From a phage, in the sequence record PZ168832.1: 64,000 bases of DNA; one strand, given 5' to 3'. Shown here in pieces: positions 25,923-35,249 of the stretch. Below the pieces are notes generated by a model. That model was given only the letters and a program-made list of their open reading frames with translations. It was not told the DNA's origin and made no database searches. The translations under genes were made by a program, and so were the position numbers. Numbering within the stretch: the first letter of the stretch is position 1; each line of letters opens with the position of its first letter.

Positions 25923-27383
25923 ATGAATAAAATATTAACACATAATTGGAAAGTCATGTACCAGTTGAATCCTGCTTTAAGAGAAGTCTGGAAGACGAAA
26001 GCGCGATACAAAGTAATATACGGCGGTCGTGCATCTTCCAAATCGCATGATGCCGCTGGTTTTGCTATTTATTTGGCGGCAAACTTTAAATTAAAATTCC
26101 TTTGCGTTCGACAATTCCAGAACAAGATTTCTGAATCAGTATATACGCTATTAAAAGACAAAATAGAAATTTCTGATTTCAAAGATGAGTTCAACTTGTT
26201 AAAGAACTCCATTGAACACAAAAGAACAAAATCTGAATTCTTATTTTACGGTATCGCACGCAACGTTGACGAAATCAAATCAACAGAAGGCGTTGATGTT
26301 CTTTGGCTTGAAGAAGCGCACGCACTTACTGAAGAGCAGTGGGACATCATTGAGCCGACAATTCGTAAGGAAGGGTCCGAAATATGGATCATATTTAACC
26401 CTGATGAAGAGGCTGATTTCGTCTACCAGAACTTTGTTATGCGACCGCCTAAAAATGCCATCGTTAAGAAGATTAACTGGCAGGACAATCCATTCTTGTC
26501 GCAAACAATGCTGGACGTTATCGCTGGCATGTATGAGCGCGACCCGAAAAAGGCAGAACACGTTTATGGCGGAGTACCGAAGACAGGCGGCGACAAGTCG
26601 GTCATCAACCGTGCATTCGTCAAGGCCGCACTAAACCTCCACAAACACCCTACGTTGGGATGGAGCTTGTCAGGGTCTAACCGTATAGGCTTTGACGTGG
26701 CAGACGACGGCGACGACTTAAACGCCACAGCATTTGTCACGGGCAACGTATTGCGCGGCATAAAGACATGGGAAGGTCTGGAAGATGAATTGCTTAAGTC
26801 CGCAAGCGGAGTTTGGAAAGATGCATTAACATTCGGCGCATCAATTACCTATGACGCCATCGGTGTTGGTGCATTTGCTGGTTCAAAATTTGATGAGCTT
26901 AATGAGTATGCAATCCATGAAAATCCAACATTCCCAAGAATCGAATTTAATGCGTTCAACGCGCAAGGTGCTGTTGATGATCCTGATGACGTCTTCCTTG
27001 AGTTACCACACGTTGAAATACTCAATAAAGACCATTTCGCAAACATAAAAGCGCAAAAATGGACTGAGATTGCCGAACGATTCAGGAAGACATATGAGTA
27101 TGCAACAGGGCAGGCCGTATACCCGACTGATGAGCTGATTTCCATCGACACAGACGGCATTCCAGAACTTGGGATTCCTGCTTGGTCTGCGGAAGAAATT
27201 GAGACATTTCTTTTTGAGATGTCAGCGCCGCGCAAAGACACGTCTGTGCTTGGTAAGTTTAAAGTTGAATCGAAAAAGGATATGGCAAAGCGTGGAGTCA
27301 AATCGCCTAACAAAGCGGACGCAGCAATCATGGCGTTGATGAAACCAATTGTTGCAGCATCCGGCTTCTTCTCTAACCTTTAA
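25923..27383 (+). CDS. terL: Terminase large subunit
   Basis: P-loop KVIYGGRASSKSH, Walker B-like VDVLWLEEAH, acidic nuclease-type C-terminal half; 486 aa. Confidence 0.85.
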   Translation: MNKILTHNWKVMYQLNPALREVWKTKARYKVIYGGRASSKSHDAAGFAIYLAANFKLKFLCVRQFQNKISESVYTLLKDKIEISDFKDEFNLLKNSIEHKRTKSEFLFYGIARNVDEIKSTEGVDVLWLEEAHALTEEQWDIIEPTIRKEGSEIWIIFNPDEEADFVYQNFVMRPPKNAIVKKINWQDNPFLSQTMLDVIAGMYERDPKKAEHVYGGVPKTGGDKSVINRAFVKAALNLHKHPTLGWSLSGSNRIGFDVADDGDDLNATAFVTGNVLRGIKTWEGLEDELLKSASGVWKDALTFGASITYDAIGVGAFAGSKFDELNEYAIHENPTFPRIEFNAFNAQGAVDDPDDVFLELPHVEILNKDHFANIKAQKWTEIAERFRKTYEYATGQAVYPTDELISIDTDGIPELGIPAWSAEEIETFLFEMSAPRKDTSVLGKFKVESKKDMAKRGVKSPNKADAAIMALMKPIVAASGFFSNL

Positions 27384-28039: not shown

Positions 28040-28201
28040 TTCAATCTCCTTTCGTTTGGTTAACTAAAATATAACTCAAAATGATACAAAAGCAAAATAT
28101 TTTATGAACTATTTATGATTACTATACATATCATTTGCTTACAAACACATGAATATTTATAATATAGATTGATTCCCTTTCACTGTCAGGTGGCGTTAAC
28201 A

Positions 28202-30577
28202 ATGAAAATTCTTGGCATAAAACTCTGGGAGAAGACGCAACCAGAAGCCGAACCAGCGGAGATGCCGCCAGGCGACCCATTGGCACCGTTTGAACGCCTT
28301 GAAAGGCGCGGCAGCGGTCAACGCTGGGAAAAGACTGAAAGCAATCGACCGACCTTTAAAACGGTTGATGACTTCCCTTTATATGAGCCTGATATTAATG
28401 GCGATGGTGTTGCAATCATAAAAGGTCGTTCAGTCGATTCCGCAACAGTATCCAAAAAGGTTATGGATAATGCCTTAAAGAACATCAGTTCAGAAGGGCA
28501 AGTCAACCCATACACAGTACCTATTCAACTTCAAAACTGGTATTTGTCACAGTCATTTATCGGCTATCAAGCTTGTGCCATCATCGCACAGCATTGGCTG
28601 GTGAACAAGGCTTGCTCTATGGTAGGCCGTGATGCAGTGCGTAAAGGTTGGGAAGTAAAATCAAGCTCTGAATCAGAATTGTCTGTGCAGGCCAGCGAAC
28701 GCTTAAAGCAAATTGATAAAGAATTTAATATCAAAGAGCACTTAGTTGAAGCCGAACGATTCAAAAATATTTTTGGTATCCGCGTCATCATATTTGATGT
28801 GCGTAGCGATGATCCAGAATACTACAGCAAACCTTTTAACATTGATGGTGTGACAAAGGGGTCTTATAAGGGAATCATTCAGGTTGACCCTTATTGGATG
28901 ATGCCATTTTTGACGTCTGAAAACACCGCCGACCCTGCATCACAGCACTTCTATGATCCAGAATACTGGGTGATCAGCGGACAACGTTATCATCGAAGCC
29001 ACCTGATCATTTTGCGAAACGATGAGCCAGCTGATATTCTCAAGCCGACTTATATTTACGGCGGCATCCCTCTGACTCAGCAGATTTATGAACGCATCTA
29101 TGCCGCTGAACGTACCGCTAACGAAGCGCCATTGCTGGCGATGTCCAAGCGTACAACCACGCTGCGGACCGACGTTGACAAGGCGATTGCCAATGAGCGG
29201 TCTTTTGCTGAACGTCTGATGATGTGGATTAAGTACCGCGACAACTATGCAGTCAAAGTGCTTGGTCAAAAAGAAGAGATGGACCAGTTCGACATCAACT
29301 TGTCAGACTTCGACAGCATCATCATGAACCAGTACCAGCTGGTGGCCGCAATCGCAAAAGTTCCGTCGACCAAACTTCTTGGGACTTCGCCAAAAGGCTT
29401 TAACGCCACTGGTGAATTTGAGATGGTCAGCTATCACGAAGAGTTGGAAACGTGCCAGCAGCATGACCTGACAAAAATTCTCGACCGCCATTACAAAATC
29501 CTTCTCAAATCAGAAGGGGTGGAAGTCGACGTTAAGGTTGCATGGGAACCAGTTGGCTCACTTACTGCTACTCAACTTGCAGAAATCAACGACAAGCGAG
29601 CTAACACTGGCAAAACTCTCATTGATGCTGGCGTCATTTCTCCTGATGAAGAGCGCGACCGCATCAAAGACGACAAAAACAGCGGCTACAACCGTCTGCC
29701 GGAAGACGCAGCAGAAGAAACCCCAGGGATGTCTCCAGAGAATATGGCATTGCTTGGCAAGTCTGCTGGTGAAGTCCTGCAAGGTAAGGCCGATATTGAA
29801 CAGGCGAAAGTTGATGTCGTTAAGATGGGCGGCCAGTTCTATAGCGAAACAGGTATTATGCCAGAGGGTGCCGCGCGTGGTGAGTTGGCGGAAAACCCTG
29901 ACAAAGCGCCTGTCGAAATCAACATGGACGATACCGATGATGAATCAAGCCATCAGGTTGATGTCCTAACGCAGTTGAAAGAAGGGCTGGAGGGTATTGC
30001 GGATTACTACCTGAAAGAAGGTCAGGATGTGGATTTTGACCCTCAAAAAGATTCACGGTCGGTGCAACCGTCTACCCTTCCAAGCGTTAAAGGACACGTC
30101 GTCAACTTACGCCACAACGTGGGTAAAATGGACGCAGCATCATTACCTAAGATGAAGTTGCACGGAATGATTCTTGGCATTGAGAATCCGCGAAACAGCA
30201 TTCGTAGAGGAAACAGCCTTGACGGTGAATGGGCCGTGAAGATGCCGCACCACTACGGATTCATCAAGGGCACCAAGGGCGCAGACGGTGATGAAGTCGA
30301 CTGCTTTGTGGGTCCAAATCTGAAGTCGCCGAAAGTCTTTATCGTGAACCAAAACGATAACTACTCTGGCGAGTTTGATGAACACAAGTGTATGCTTGGA
30401 TTCGATTCAGCAGAAGAAGCGAAAGAAGCTTATCAAGCATCATTTGGTAACGGTTGGAACGGATTCGACTCAATCCACGAATTAGATGTGAACTCATTCA
30501 AGGAGTGGTTGAAGGGTGATTGCTCTCAAGCATACGGAGCACTCAATAATCCTACTAATTCACCGAAGCAAGGTTGA
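28202..30577 (+). CDS. Portal protein with an unassigned C-terminal extension (tentative)
   Basis: Position directly after terminase and before a Mu-F-like head morphogenesis gene; AGGTGG RBS then ATG at 28202; about 790 aa, larger than typical portals. Confidence 0.6.
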   Translation: MKILGIKLWEKTQPEAEPAEMPPGDPLAPFERLERRGSGQRWEKTESNRPTFKTVDDFPLYEPDINGDGVAIIKGRSVDSATVSKKVMDNALKNISSEGQVNPYTVPIQLQNWYLSQSFIGYQACAIIAQHWLVNKACSMVGRDAVRKGWEVKSSSESELSVQASERLKQIDKEFNIKEHLVEAERFKNIFGIRVIIFDVRSDDPEYYSKPFNIDGVTKGSYKGIIQVDPYWMMPFLTSENTADPASQHFYDPEYWVISGQRYHRSHLIILRNDEPADILKPTYIYGGIPLTQQIYERIYAAERTANEAPLLAMSKRTTTLRTDVDKAIANERSFAERLMMWIKYRDNYAVKVLGQKEEMDQFDINLSDFDSIIMNQYQLVAAIAKVPSTKLLGTSPKGFNATGEFEMVSYHEELETCQQHDLTKILDRHYKILLKSEGVEVDVKVAWEPVGSLTATQLAEINDKRANTGKTLIDAGVISPDEERDRIKDDKNSGYNRLPEDAAEETPGMSPENMALLGKSAGEVLQGKADIEQAKVDVVKMGGQFYSETGIMPEGAARGELAENPDKAPVEINMDDTDDESSHQVDVLTQLKEGLEGIADYYLKEGQDVDFDPQKDSRSVQPSTLPSVKGHVVNLRHNVGKMDAASLPKMKLHGMILGIENPRNSIRRGNSLDGEWAVKMPHHYGFIKGTKGADGDEVDCFVGPNLKSPKVFIVNQNDNYSGEFDEHKCMLGFDSAEEAKEAYQASFGNGWNGFDSIHELDVNSFKEWLKGDCSQAYGALNNPTNSPKQG

Positions 30578-30578
30578 T

Positions 30579-31430
30579 ATGGCTTTTAAAGCTTCGAAAA
30601 AACGTGAACGCCGCTCACCCGATAGAATCGGACGCGGCAGTCCGATAATCCCATCAAACGCTATTGCGATGGCCTACCGTCGTGAGATGAAAGGTCTTTG
30701 CTATGCGATGATTGATGACTATCAGGCAGGCATTTCAGAATGGCTTGACAAGAAGCAGGTGCAGAAGTTTTTTGCGCAAGACTCTGCTGATTCGACATTC
30801 CAGACCCTTATGAAACGGCTGCAACTGAAATGGGCAAAGGCGTTTGCACGTGTTGGGTCGAAGATTGCCGCTGATTTTATCAAATCGGTCGAAAAGGGTG
30901 CCACTTCTGCTACATTCGCAAGCCTTAAGTCCGCAGGCATAGAAGCGCCAAAGGCCACATATAACAAATTCGTTGAGAACACTCTTAGAACAAGCGAGAA
31001 GTTTAACACGACTCTAGTGACTAAGGTCGGCGAGGATATTCACAACAGGGTGTACGAAGCGGTGATGCTTTCGCTGACTTCGCCAGACCCAGCACAGCAA
31101 GGCGCATCCGGCATTCAGGCGGCATTAAGAAATGTCAAACACTTCTCTGCAAAACGCGTAGACCTTATCGCCAAAGACCAAACGAGCAAACTTTATTGCG
31201 TATTAAGTGATGAAAGGATGCGACAGAATGGCGTGGAGGAATTTGAGTGGGCGCATTCAGGAGCAGGCAAAGAGCCGCGAATATCACATGAGCACGTCGA
31301 CGGCATGAGATTCAAGCTTGATGACAAACGCTTATGGGAAGTAGGTGGAGAACTTAAGTTCAAAAAGGGTGACATCGGTCCTCCTGGATGGGCAATACAC
31401 TGCAAGTGCAGAAAAATACCAATTATCTGA
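30579..31430 (+). CDS. Head morphogenesis protein (Mu gpF / SPP1 gp7-like)
   Basis: C-terminal HEHVDGM ... PPGWAIHCKCRKIPI, characteristic of this family. Confidence 0.7.
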   Translation: MAFKASKKRERRSPDRIGRGSPIIPSNAIAMAYRREMKGLCYAMIDDYQAGISEWLDKKQVQKFFAQDSADSTFQTLMKRLQLKWAKAFARVGSKIAADFIKSVEKGATSATFASLKSAGIEAPKATYNKFVENTLRTSEKFNTTLVTKVGEDIHNRVYEAVMLSLTSPDPAQQGASGIQAALRNVKHFSAKRVDLIAKDQTSKLYCVLSDERMRQNGVEEFEWAHSGAGKEPRISHEHVDGMRFKLDDKRLWEVGGELKFKKGDIGPPGWAIHCKCRKIPII

Positions 31431-31950: not shown

Positions 31951-32062
31951 TAATTAAGGCGCGGCTATATCGGTTGTTATACATATTCAAACCATAATTA
32001 TTGTTTGCCTAAGTTTTTTTCATTAGATATAATACACAATACTTATTTGAGGGTGGATGCGA

Positions 32063-33475
32063 ATGCAAACGGCACGCGAAATTGACAAAAATGGATTCTT
32101 GACGATTGTGGGTTGTCCCATTTCGTCATTTGGCATTTTTGATTATTCTGCAGGTCAGGTTGGACTTGATGGTGATCCGAATCGCATCGTAAAAGTTTAT
32201 CGCCCAGAGTCAGCGGTGAAAGACCCCGAAGCGATAGATTCATTCAAAAATATCCCTTTCATCGACAATCACGAAATGCTTTCTGGATTCGAAGGTGATG
32301 AGGATAACACAGCACCCGAAGAGTATGGAGTTGATGGCGTTCTGACTGGCAATGTTTATTATGACAAGCCATGGATGCGCGGCGACCTTAAAGTGTTTAG
32401 CCGTCGTCTGAAGAAGGCCATTGATTCTGGAAAGGTTGACTTGTCTTTGGGCTATGACTGTGAATTCATCATACAGTCTGGAGAGTTTGACGGGCAGCCG
32501 TATGAAGTGGTGCAGACAACTCTTCGCGGCAACCACATTGCTCTCGTGGACGTTGGTCGAGTACCAGGTGCACGGGTGCTGGATGGTCGTTGCTTTGACC
32601 ATCTTTGTTTGACGACTGTAACACCATCCAACGAGGATTTAGACATGCCAAAACCGTTAAAAGGTAAAGCGCGTGATAATGCTGTTGAACAGCTGAAATC
32701 ACTGATCCCTGCGCTCGAACAATTTCTGAATGAAGAGAGTACTGAAGCTGCTCATCAGGACGAAGTTGAAGTGAAAGCAGAAGAGAAGGACTCAACCGAA
32801 AATCGTGAAGAAGTAATGGTTGATCCAGAAGTCAAGGCAGAAGCAGAAGAAACCCCAGAAGGTGAAGAGAAGTTTGAAGTTGAAACTGAATCTAACGCTG
32901 GCGGCGAACTTCCGCAATTGATCAGCCAAATCGAAGCACTTATTGCAAAACTGAAAGGTGGCGCGGTAGGTGATGAAGAAGAAGTTGAAGCCGAAGTCAA
33001 AGACGAAGAAGTTGAAGTCAAGGCTGAAGATGTATCACCTTGCGACAAAGCTGAAGATGTGGTTAGCGGCCTGCAAAACAGCAACGTAAAGGGGGCTTCG
33101 GTCGAAAAAGATGACAAACCGACAAAAGCGGCGAAAGCGTCGCCAGGTCCAGCAAAAGGGGAACACTCAATGGCATCTGATTCAGCAGTTGCTGCTTTCT
33201 ACGCTGATTCTGCTCGTAAGAATAGCCTCTACCAGCGCCTGTCTAAAGTTGTTGGTGCCTTTGATCATGCAACTATGGACTCCAAGTCCGTAGCGAAATA
33301 TGGCGCTAAAAAGTTAGGCTTGAAGTGCGTTGATGGTGCTGAGTTTGACGTGGTGGATAATTATCTGCGTGGCGTTGAACACGGTCAAAAACAGCGTGTA
33401 GTCGCAAAACAAAAGGCCGCTGCGGATTCTGCAGCAACTGACGAAGCATTTGAAGCTTGGTTGAAAGGGGAATAA
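32063..33475 (+). CDS. Prohead protease / scaffold-like protein with acidic repeats (tentative)
   Basis: Lies between the head morphogenesis gene and the capsid gene; central region of EVEVKAEE-type acidic repeats. Confidence 0.5.
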   Translation: MQTAREIDKNGFLTIVGCPISSFGIFDYSAGQVGLDGDPNRIVKVYRPESAVKDPEAIDSFKNIPFIDNHEMLSGFEGDEDNTAPEEYGVDGVLTGNVYYDKPWMRGDLKVFSRRLKKAIDSGKVDLSLGYDCEFIIQSGEFDGQPYEVVQTTLRGNHIALVDVGRVPGARVLDGRCFDHLCLTTVTPSNEDLDMPKPLKGKARDNAVEQLKSLIPALEQFLNEESTEAAHQDEVEVKAEEKDSTENREEVMVDPEVKAEAEETPEGEEKFEVETESNAGGELPQLISQIEALIAKLKGGAVGDEEEVEAEVKDEEVEVKAEDVSPCDKAEDVVSGLQNSNVKGASVEKDDKPTKAAKASPGPAKGEHSMASDSAVAAFYADSARKNSLYQRLSKVVGAFDHATMDSKSVAKYGAKKLGLKCVDGAEFDVVDNYLRGVEHGQKQRVVAKQKAAADSAATDEAFEAWLKGE

Positions 33476-34109: not shown

Positions 34110-35249
34110 ATGACTCGCATTAGCCAAACACACTCTCGCCTCCCAGCGAGCAAGGTGCGCCCTTTTGATATGCAATCCGTCACCGACGCGGCTGTTTCCC
34201 AGCTTGCTCGTATCGGTATTGTGTTTGATTCCGCGATTGTGCGTGATCAGATTGAGCACTTAAACCGTGCAGGCGCTTTCCGCGTAGGTGATGCCGCGTT
34301 TACTGCGCCGCAGACTACTCCGTCAATCCCGACCCCGTTGCAGTTCCTGCAGCAGTGGTTGCCTGGCTTCGTCAAAATCATGACAGCTGCTCGTAAAATC
34401 GACGAGCTGGTTGGTATTGATACCGTTGGTCAGTGGGAAGATGCAGAAATCGTTCAGGGCATCGTTGAACCAGCTGGCACCGCAGTTGAATATGGTGATT
34501 TCACCTCTATTCCTCTGGCAAGCTGGAACGTAAACTTTGAACGTCGCTCTATCGTTCGCGGTGAAATGGGCATGGCAGTTGGTATGCTGGAAGAAGGCCG
34601 CGCGTCTGCGATGCGTCTGAACTCCGCAGAAACCAAACGCCAGCAGGCTGCTGTATCTCTGGAAATCATGCGTAACGCAATCGGCTTCTATGGTTGGTAC
34701 AACGGGAACAACCGCACGTTCGGCTTCCTGAATGATCCAAACCTGCCAGCGGCGATGACTTCCACCACCACTTCCGGCTGGGCCACTGCGACTTTCCAAC
34801 AGGTGACTGCAGACATCCGTTTGATGGTTCGTCAAATTCGTGTGAACTCTCAGGACCAGATTGATCCAGAGAAGGTTGACATGACTCTTGCGCTGCCGAC
34901 TAACTCTATCGATTGGCTGTCCAACACCACTGACTTCGGTATTTCTGTACGTGACTGGATCACCCAGACTTATCCGAAGATGAAGATCAAGTCTGCACCG
35001 GAACTCAACGGCGCACTTGGCAGCGACCCGACTTTCTTGAACGTGGCATACCTGTACGCTGATCACATCGATTCCTCAATCGATGGTTCAAGCGATGATG
35101 GTTCCGTATTCAGTCAGCTGGTTCAAACCAAGTTCATGACTCTGGGCGTTGAAAAGCGTGCTAAGAGCTACGTTGAAGACTACGCAAACGCAACAGCAGG
35201 CGTTCTGCTCAAGCGTCCGTTCGCAGTCGTCCGTATGACTGGTATTTAA
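34110..35249 (+). CDS. Major capsid protein (tentative)
   Basis: 379-aa ORF in the canonical position; AGGTG RBS; followed by a stem-loop. Confidence 0.55.

Follow-up and report, generated by a model that had tools for sequence, protein, structure and literature searches.

A stretch of phage DNA of 64,000 nucleotides (sequence record PZ168832.1, hereafter the window) carries, at positions 28,202 to 30,577, a gene for a 791-residue protein that is, to judge from its sequence, the portal, an orthologue of gp19 of phages E217 and Pa193. Past the portal fold the protein continues through an acidic linker into an InPase domain, a small domain resembling the family I pyrophosphatases. The reading that we favor, with a probability of roughly 55%, is that this is a Wifcevirus portal with an enzyme as cargo at its C-terminus, a phosphoanhydride hydrolase that is carried in the virion and serves the next infection. 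The parts of the gene are given below; pLDDT is the predicted local distance difference test score, and the full-length model is an AlphaFold model of the 791-residue protein built on an alignment of 42 portals bearing the same fusion (hereafter fused portals).

28202..30577, plus strand: portal gene, 791 codons and a TGA stop (open reading frame translation, Pfam, structure-chain match)
28202..28483, plus strand: N-terminal region, residues 1-94, predicted to be disordered (pLDDT below 50, poor conservation)
28484..29821, plus strand: portal fold, residues 95-540, with wing, stem, clip, crown and C-terminal barrel helix (PF06381, match to 8fvh_O)
29735..29824, plus strand: barrel helix, residues 512-541, predicted to project into the capsid (full-length model; pLDDT about 50-58 as 10-residue block means)
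29825..30130, plus strand: linker, residues 542-643, net charge -10, mostly disordered (full-length model, alignment)
29939..30007, plus strand: amphipathic helix within the linker, residues 580-602 (block-mean pLDDT 74-90)
30056..30094, plus strand: linker motif RSVQPSTLPSVKG, residues 619-631 (alignment of fused portals)
30131..30526, plus strand: InPase domain, residues 644-775 (about 132 residues), a divergent family I pyrophosphatase-like OB (oligonucleotide/oligosaccharide-binding) fold (Pfam, models)
30284..30304, plus strand: DGDEVDC, residues 695-701, putative metal-binding and general-base motif of family I pyrophosphatases (profile alignment)
30527..30574, plus strand: C-terminal tail, residues 776-791, disordered (pLDDT below 50 from residue 786)

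The preliminary description had placed a portal of about 790 residues here from the position of the gene, and this identification was confirmed. Pfam Phage_portal_3 (PF06381) matched residues 122-468 (E=4.5e-88, 295.8 bits against a cut-off of 33.8), the E217 portal gp19 chain (8fvh_O) matched residues 107-537 (E=8.6e-189), and the Pa193 gp19 portal sequence (9b41_L, 765 residues) matched residues 14-779 (E=6.6e-250), its C-terminal domain included. PHROG 4660 spans residues 16-777, and the one match in an NCBIfam search, TIGR01555, falls in the portal part and is below threshold. The gene order, from the large terminase subunit (TerL) through the portal, a Mu F-like minor head protein and a DUF2213 protein to the major capsid protein, fits the portal position. 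By orthology, the protein would form a ring of twelve copies in the capsid of this phage.

In the published structures by cryo-electron microscopy (cryo-EM), the E217 and Pa193 portals were modeled to residue 528 and residues 529-765 were without density; in Pa193, the 93 N-terminal residues equivalent to our disordered N-terminal region were also left unmodeled. The last visible portal element of E217 is the helical barrel; it points toward the head interior and loses its fold once the DNA has been ejected. Residue 528 of the Pa193 portal corresponds approximately to residue 540 of the window protein, and the region past the visible portal fold comprises residues 541-791 (251 residues), in agreement with the C-terminal extension of about 250 residues described earlier. 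The strings that had been quoted for it (HVVNLRHNVGKMDAASLPKMKLHGMILG, DGDEVDCFVGPNL and DEHKCMLGF) are all present in the translation.

This extension had been taken for a separate globular domain of unknown function. The first half of that claim stands for residues 644-775 (about 132 residues) and falls for the roughly 100 residues before them, which are a largely disordered linker in the models. The second half does not survive at the level of the family: Pfam InPase (PF18823) matched residues 649-771 (E=3.1e-46), with 157 bits against a cut-off of 26.8, and the fold is that of a pyrophosphatase. Domain-level profile search and structure prediction, which had been proposed as a check, thus both gave an answer, the one identifying InPase and the other a compact domain at residues 644-775. 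In the full-length model these residues form a compact beta-rich domain with pLDDT 85-97, and a separate AlphaFold2 model of residues 620-791 had a mean pLDDT of 86, with 122 residues at 90 or above and a core above 90. When the Protein Data Bank was searched with Foldseek, all 50 matches listed were family I pyrophosphatases (E from about 1e-4, TM score about 0.40-0.45), and residues 644-775 were found to have a pyrophosphatase-type OB fold.

The domain also retains the metal-binding and catalytic core of a family I active site (E661, Y685, D695, D697, D700, D726/E727 and K729). Its DGDEVDC (residues 695-701) aligned to DGDPVDV of Escherichia coli pyrophosphatase (PPase) and matches the PROSITE signature of family I pyrophosphatases, D-[SGDN]-D-[PE]-[LIVMF]-D-[LIVMGAC]. 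The domain profile HYGYIkgTkGaDGDeVDcFV aligns to the E. coli PPase segment that holds Y55, D65, D67 and D70; alignment of the profile to E. coli PPase is confident only over the 25-28 columns of this Y55-D70 segment, and the other equivalences given here are approximate and our own. Among the 42 fused portals, which are 40-55% identical overall, E661, R668, Y685, D695, D700, D726, E727 and K729 are invariant, and the position of D697, which is equivalent to the general base D67, holds D in 34 of them, E in 6, Q in 1 and H in 1. In a 36-sequence alignment of short InPase proteins, the corresponding columns show either no variation or conservation of at least 90%. The active site of family I PPases is made up of about 14 residues: E20, K29, E31, R43, Y51, Y55, D65, D67, D70, D97, D102, K104, Y141 and K142. 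By the approximate alignment, the window domain has counterparts of E20, K29 (as R668), Y55, D65, D67, D70, D102 and K104, no conserved counterparts of Y51 and D97 were seen in it, and it does not contain the full set. E. coli PPase is longer than the domain by about 40 residues, and the segment equivalent to R43-Y55 appears shortened in the domain; InPase is described as being without the beta-hairpin insert of classical PPases by Iyer et al. 2017 (PMC5512222). By the approximate alignment, the domain preserves the metal and electrophilic-phosphate site typical of family I enzymes, and we conclude that the domain is very probably a metal-dependent phosphoanhydride hydrolase, for which specificity for inorganic pyrophosphate (PPi) is not required.

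The preliminary description had further suggested that the extension may be packaged into the capsid, and published virion proteomes of two close relatives, vB_Eco4M-7 and ECML-117, confirm that it is in the particle. Their portal genes are 91.5% and 97.3% identical in nucleotide sequence to that of the window, respectively, and their particles were purified on cesium chloride (CsCl) and analyzed by shotgun, gel-free mass spectrometry (PMC7048862, supplementary files 3 and 4). Peptides were found from the linker (including LPEDAAEETPGMSPENMALLGK, APVEINMDDTDDESSHQVDVLTQLK, EGLEGIADYYLK and GNVVNLR), from the InPase domain (LHGMILGIENPR, MPHHYGFIK, GADGDEVDCFVGPNLK, VFIVNQNDNYSGEFDEHK and CMLGFDSAEEAK) and, in virions of both relatives, from the extreme C-terminus (GDCSQAYGALNNPTNSPK); Eco4M-7 virions also yielded N-terminal portal peptides covering residues 12-32 and 45-53 (PMC7048862). 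Because peptides from linker, InPase domain and C-terminus are present in purified particles, the extension is virion-associated in close relatives of this phage. Because the proteomics was gel-free, the 88.7-kDa protein and fragments of it are indistinguishable; as a check on processing, the use to which virion proteomics was to have been put, these data supply the extension peptides and are uninformative on cleavage. The E217 structure paper contains no mass spectrometry. In both proteomes, peptides of the extension far outnumber those of the portal core: MPHHYGFIK was represented by 172-174 peptide-spectrum matches and LHGMILGIENPR by up to 135, and the portal-core peptides AcSMVGR, NIFGIR, IYAAER and TANEAPLLAMSK by 1-2 each (PMC7048862).

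Strong purifying selection acts on the extension over its entire length. The ratio of nonsynonymous to synonymous substitution rates (dN/dS, Nei-Gojobori, 8 Wifcevirus genes) was 0.006 for the portal core (residues 95-470), 0.018 for the barrel region (residues 471-537), 0.023 for the linker and 0.017 for the InPase domain, and all 8 of these genes, which were compared in detail, encode an intact 791-residue protein.

The extension is normal in Wifcevirus and in Pbunavirus (765 residues, 9b41), an outcome that the preliminary description had named as refuting it. Of the 120 best homologues found with only the portal region, 66 combine PF06381 with PF18823, as do 50 of the best 55. Fused portal homologues are 730-780 residues long and lie mostly on contigs of 65-72 kb. 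A tblastn search with the InPase domain retrieved 471 phage records (Pseudomonas 294, Vibrio 70, Escherichia 27, and also Serratia, Burkholderia, Xanthomonas and others), and an InPase profile search retrieved 12,290 cluster representatives at 50% identity. Among the best 150 of these 12,290, InPase-bearing proteins are mostly multi-domain phage proteins of 1,000-6,000 residues, with which PHROG matches agree; short InPase proteins of 100-285 residues exist elsewhere. Three apparently stand-alone InPase genes (176-229 residues) occur in three different contexts: one (L008, 7001-7669) among QueC, asparagine-synthase-like, radical SAM and sugar-modification genes, another (L009, 7001-7690) in a head module a few genes past the terminase, and the third (L010, 7001-7531) adjoining baseplate genes. 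The InPase domain was defined by Iyer et al. 2017 (PMC5512222), who noted a portal fusion (BcepF1.124), proposed that InPase is packaged and injected, and suggested a nucleotide-like molecule or PPi as its substrate. The portal-InPase fusion is therefore standard in this portal clade, described in 2017 and already known; gene, domain family and fusion are all in public databases and literature, and as things stand no new biology is added.

Annotation of these proteins is inconsistent. Fused portals appear across GenBank records as hypothetical protein, minor head protein, virion protein or portal protein, and the records found by tblastn with the InPase domain are usually labeled "minor head protein" or "hypothetical," a pyrophosphatase being named in 1 of the 45 listed of 471. 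A Citrobacter copy (P0093) is named "anti-CBASS protein Acb1 family protein" though it is without an Acb1 domain; because its domains are portal and InPase, this name is unjustified. The word "pyrophosphatase" occurs 0 times in the E217 and Pa193 structure papers, and these cryo-EM atlases leave the last ~237 residues of the portal unexplained, a pyrophosphatase-like enzyme going unmentioned.

What occupies the C-terminus of related portals varies. In three of them (P0114, P0129 and P0164), 51-53% identical in the portal region, a domain of Acb1 (PF23474), which acts against the cyclic oligonucleotide-based antiphage signaling system (CBASS), replaces InPase at the same position. In P0114 (L011, 2288-4309), PF23474 matched residues 534-666 (E=1e-19). 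In all three portals the Acb1 domain follows a similar acidic linker, and their neighborhood is the same E217-type head and neck module with terminase, Mu F, Pa193_gp24-like, cement, capsid and E217 gp27/28/29 genes. Other related portals have unannotated tails of 100-250 residues or none (length about 500 residues). Because related portals bear InPase, Acb1, another tail or no tail, their C-terminus behaves as an exchangeable cargo slot, and one occupant of that slot, Acb1, is from a family known to degrade immune signaling nucleotides. The window protein itself gave no Pfam match to PF23474, and a literature search for the Acb1-portal fusion gave nothing relevant. A related portal of 752 residues (P0119; L013, 6001-8259) has a different tail of about 250 residues with the string DGHHSLAA. 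By eye this tail resembled a ParB or nuclease-like domain, which was not confirmed by any Pfam match at E<=0.01; the contig also has a separate ParB_N gene upstream of the portal.

Between portal and enzyme lies the linker, which in the full-length model has pLDDT below 50 over residues 537-579 and 616-635 and is largely non-helical over residues 603-643. Across the 42 fused portals it is 46-111 residues long and variable in sequence. Two elements recur within it. The heptad-like pattern LLxxLxxKLxxL...PEGxDL of its helix is kept in most fused homologues, and most fused portals in the alignment have the motif RSVxPSVxG, for which the family pattern is [KR]-[ST]-[VI]-x-P-[ST]-V-x-G, with P623 at least 90% conserved. 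The motif is also seen in P0076 (ARSVRPSVTG), a related portal whose tail has no InPase. It might serve for cleavage or for docking. The idea that it is a protease site shared among virion proteins was considered and set aside: when all six reading frames of the window were scanned with a regular expression, the single occurrence was in the portal, so that the other virion proteins give the idea no backing. The portal protein itself contains no protease domain.

The capsid-pointing barrel helix is followed by an acidic tether of about 100 residues and then by the InPase domain. We propose that twelve InPase copies hang in the head above the barrel on flexible tethers, outside the symmetry of the portal. 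The absence of cryo-EM density past residue 528 in E217 and Pa193 would then be because the domains are flexibly tethered. The domain would be active as an Mg2+-dependent phosphoanhydride hydrolase, and it would most likely be in place when the next infection begins, by analogy with other phage virion-borne effector domains. Its target may be PPi or, more probably, a nucleotide-type host molecule that contains pyrophosphate, with counter-defense as the probable benefit. If InPase turned out to be delivered by the virion and to destroy a host nucleotide signal, the known anti-defense enzymes would gain a widespread family, one with about 12,000 representatives when clustered at 50% identity.

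Several observations weigh against this proposal. The first is geometric: about 103 disordered residues together with about 30 residues of unfolded barrel reach at most ~480 Å, and the tail is 1300-1500 Å long. Because the reach of the tether is below the length of the tail, the domain could enter the cell only if a protease cut it free and it then passed down the channel, and a domain that stays tethered to the portal is unable to reach the cytoplasm without cleavage. There is no evidence for cleavage of the domain from the portal, the gel-free peptide data being uninformative, and the linker motif, a candidate cleavage site, occurs only the once in the window. Twelve copies are also a small dose of enzyme. 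As to chemistry, E31, R43 and K142 of the leaving-group site have no conserved counterpart and Y141 corresponds to F748 (approximate alignment), and the classical pyrophosphatase model PF00719 stayed below threshold (18.0 and 20.3 bits against 23.5), aligning only residues 679-703. Finally, no measured enzymatic activity for any InPase domain was found in the searchable literature, where a search for experimental work on InPase gave only the computational paper of 2017 (PMC5512222) and unrelated papers.

The explanation that survives best beside the virion-borne cargo, though we think it unlikely, is that InPase works in the producer cell only, late in infection, when free or procapsid-bound portal would be active in the cytoplasm and would clear PPi or a nucleotide signal that late proteins had triggered; that the enzyme ends up in the capsid would be a by-product of the fusion. 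This would agree with a tether too short for the cell and with cleavage and ejection that are not demonstrated, and, since the fusion partner is a late structural gene, the enzyme is bound to be made along with the capsid proteins. Of the apparently stand-alone InPase genes (176-229 residues), some also lie outside head modules, among DNA- or sugar-modification genes or beside baseplate genes. However, a C-terminus that faces into the capsid sequesters the enzyme when the shell closes, which would be odd for a cytoplasmic enzyme, and InPase is typically found inside giant multi-domain phage proteins that are predicted to be packaged and injected (PMC5512222).

Two further readings are, in our view, improbable. 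One extends the favored explanation: the C-terminus of E217-type portals would be a general slot for counter-defense cargo (InPase here, Acb1 or other domains in sister phages), RSVxPSVxG would be cut during maturation or in connection with ejection, and twelve freed InPase copies would leave with the DNA and hydrolyze an immune signal or alarmone that contains pyrophosphate. If this were true, InPase would be an uncharacterized class of virion-delivered anti-defense enzyme. The other is that the domain is a true inorganic pyrophosphatase which hydrolyzes PPi at the entry site or the replication focus and so pulls early transcription and DNA synthesis forward, with no part in counter-defense. 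PPi is listed as an alternative by Iyer et al. 2017 (PMC5512222), the BASEL paper cites a report of unusually fast Wifcevirus replication, and the family I fold is conserved together with its electrophilic-phosphate and metal site. However, the leaving-group site is apparently remodeled, with the classical Pfam model below threshold, and the same slot holds the signal-degrading nuclease Acb1 in sister portals. The host's own PPase is abundant in E. coli, and twelve molecules would add little to it.

It is very unlikely that the role of the extension is structural, that is, that twelve domains with their acidic linkers form an internal plug, an organizer of the DNA end or a sensor of headful or pressure, for which a pyrophosphatase fold was merely reused. 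Within the genus, conservation of linker, helix and motif is as strong as that of InPase, the motif also occurs in the P0076 portal tail that is without InPase, and in E217 the barrel responds to DNA. Against this, the catalytic acidic residues, lysine and tyrosine are invariant in the 42 fused portals and conserved in short InPase proteins, and InPase is absent or swapped for Acb1 in portals 50-55% identical with the same head module. Because InPase is dispensable or replaced in related portals, it cannot be essential for portal mechanics. An artifact, in which a sequencing or assembly error joined a portal gene to a small enzyme gene, has nothing in its favor beyond the existence of short InPase proteins (100-285 residues) elsewhere, and it is excluded by the uninterrupted reading frame of 791 codons in 8 of 8 genes compared, full-length alignment in 29 independent records, the 765-residue Pa193 portal (PDB 9b41) that includes InPase, and the linker-spanning peptides found in virions.

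The limits of the gene and its surroundings are consistent with a portal of a Wifcevirus-type E. coli myophage, to which the window DNA belongs by alignment: the portal gene aligned over its full length in 29 Wifcevirus-type phage records at 91-98% nucleotide identity (98.1% to vB_EcoM_WFH). The features that flank it are the following.

25923..27383, plus strand: TerL, the large terminase subunit (Pfam Terminase_3, E=3.2e-37)
28188..28193, plus strand: ribosome-binding site AGGTGG, 8 nucleotides 5' of the ATG at 28202 (direct sequence reading)
30579..31430, plus strand: Mu F-like minor head protein (PF04233, E=4.5e-7; relatives annotated alike)
32057-33475: DUF2213 or Pa193_gp24-like protein, 472 residues (Pfam)
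34110-35249: major capsid protein

A TTG at 28169, upstream and in frame, would lengthen the protein by 11 residues to 802. We rejected this TTG as the start since AGGTGG precedes the ATG at 28202 and the relatives read all use ATG; the ATG is the annotated start in 7 of 7 relatives whose annotation was read, and the start of the gene alignment is common to all 29 related phage records. Two small minus-strand open reading frames occupy the 0.8 kb that separates the large terminase gene from the portal gene downstream of it. The portal gene lies directly upstream of the Mu F-like gene, the ATG of which begins 2 nucleotides past the portal stop codon (junction read). An apparent promoter candidate upstream of the portal gene failed a consensus scan, and ARAGORN found no tRNA or tmRNA gene in the whole 64,000-nucleotide window. 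The DUF2213 or Pa193_gp24-like protein has a long, very acidic middle part rich in Glu, Val and Lys and is labeled a maturation protease or a scaffold, depending on the relative; in its Pa193 homologue, a helix-turn-helix (residues 286-326) stays bound beneath the capsid pentons.

Compared with known systems, the window domain is like E. coli Ppa (PF00719, EC 3.6.1.1) in its OB-type fold and in YGY...DGD-x-x-D, which parallels Y55, D65, D67 and D70, and in a D/E-x-K segment that by our own alignment parallels D102 and K104. The portal-Acb1 fusions of metagenomic E217-like phages (PF06381 with PF23474) share with the window protein an acidic linker followed by a small C-terminal enzyme domain, but their cargo is a 2H phosphodiesterase, the fold of which is unrelated to InPase. 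BcepF1.124 and the polyvalent InPase proteins (PMC5512222) have the conserved acidic residues and, as described, a portal fusion; in contrast to the polyvalent proteins, which reach 1,000-6,000 residues, the window protein has two domains and no processing protease domain alongside InPase. The closest parallel in architecture is gp19 of E217 and Pa193 (Pbunavirus; PDB 8fvh, 9b41), which has the same two-part plan over its full length and the same order of head genes, and a Pbunavirus portal (P0054) is about 62% identical to the window protein in the portal region. The window protein differs from gp19 in its host, E. coli, in being 26 residues longer and in a linker sequence that has diverged except for the helix and the motif; and whereas the first 93 portal residues went undetected in Pa193, N-terminal portal peptides were detected in Wifcevirus virions.

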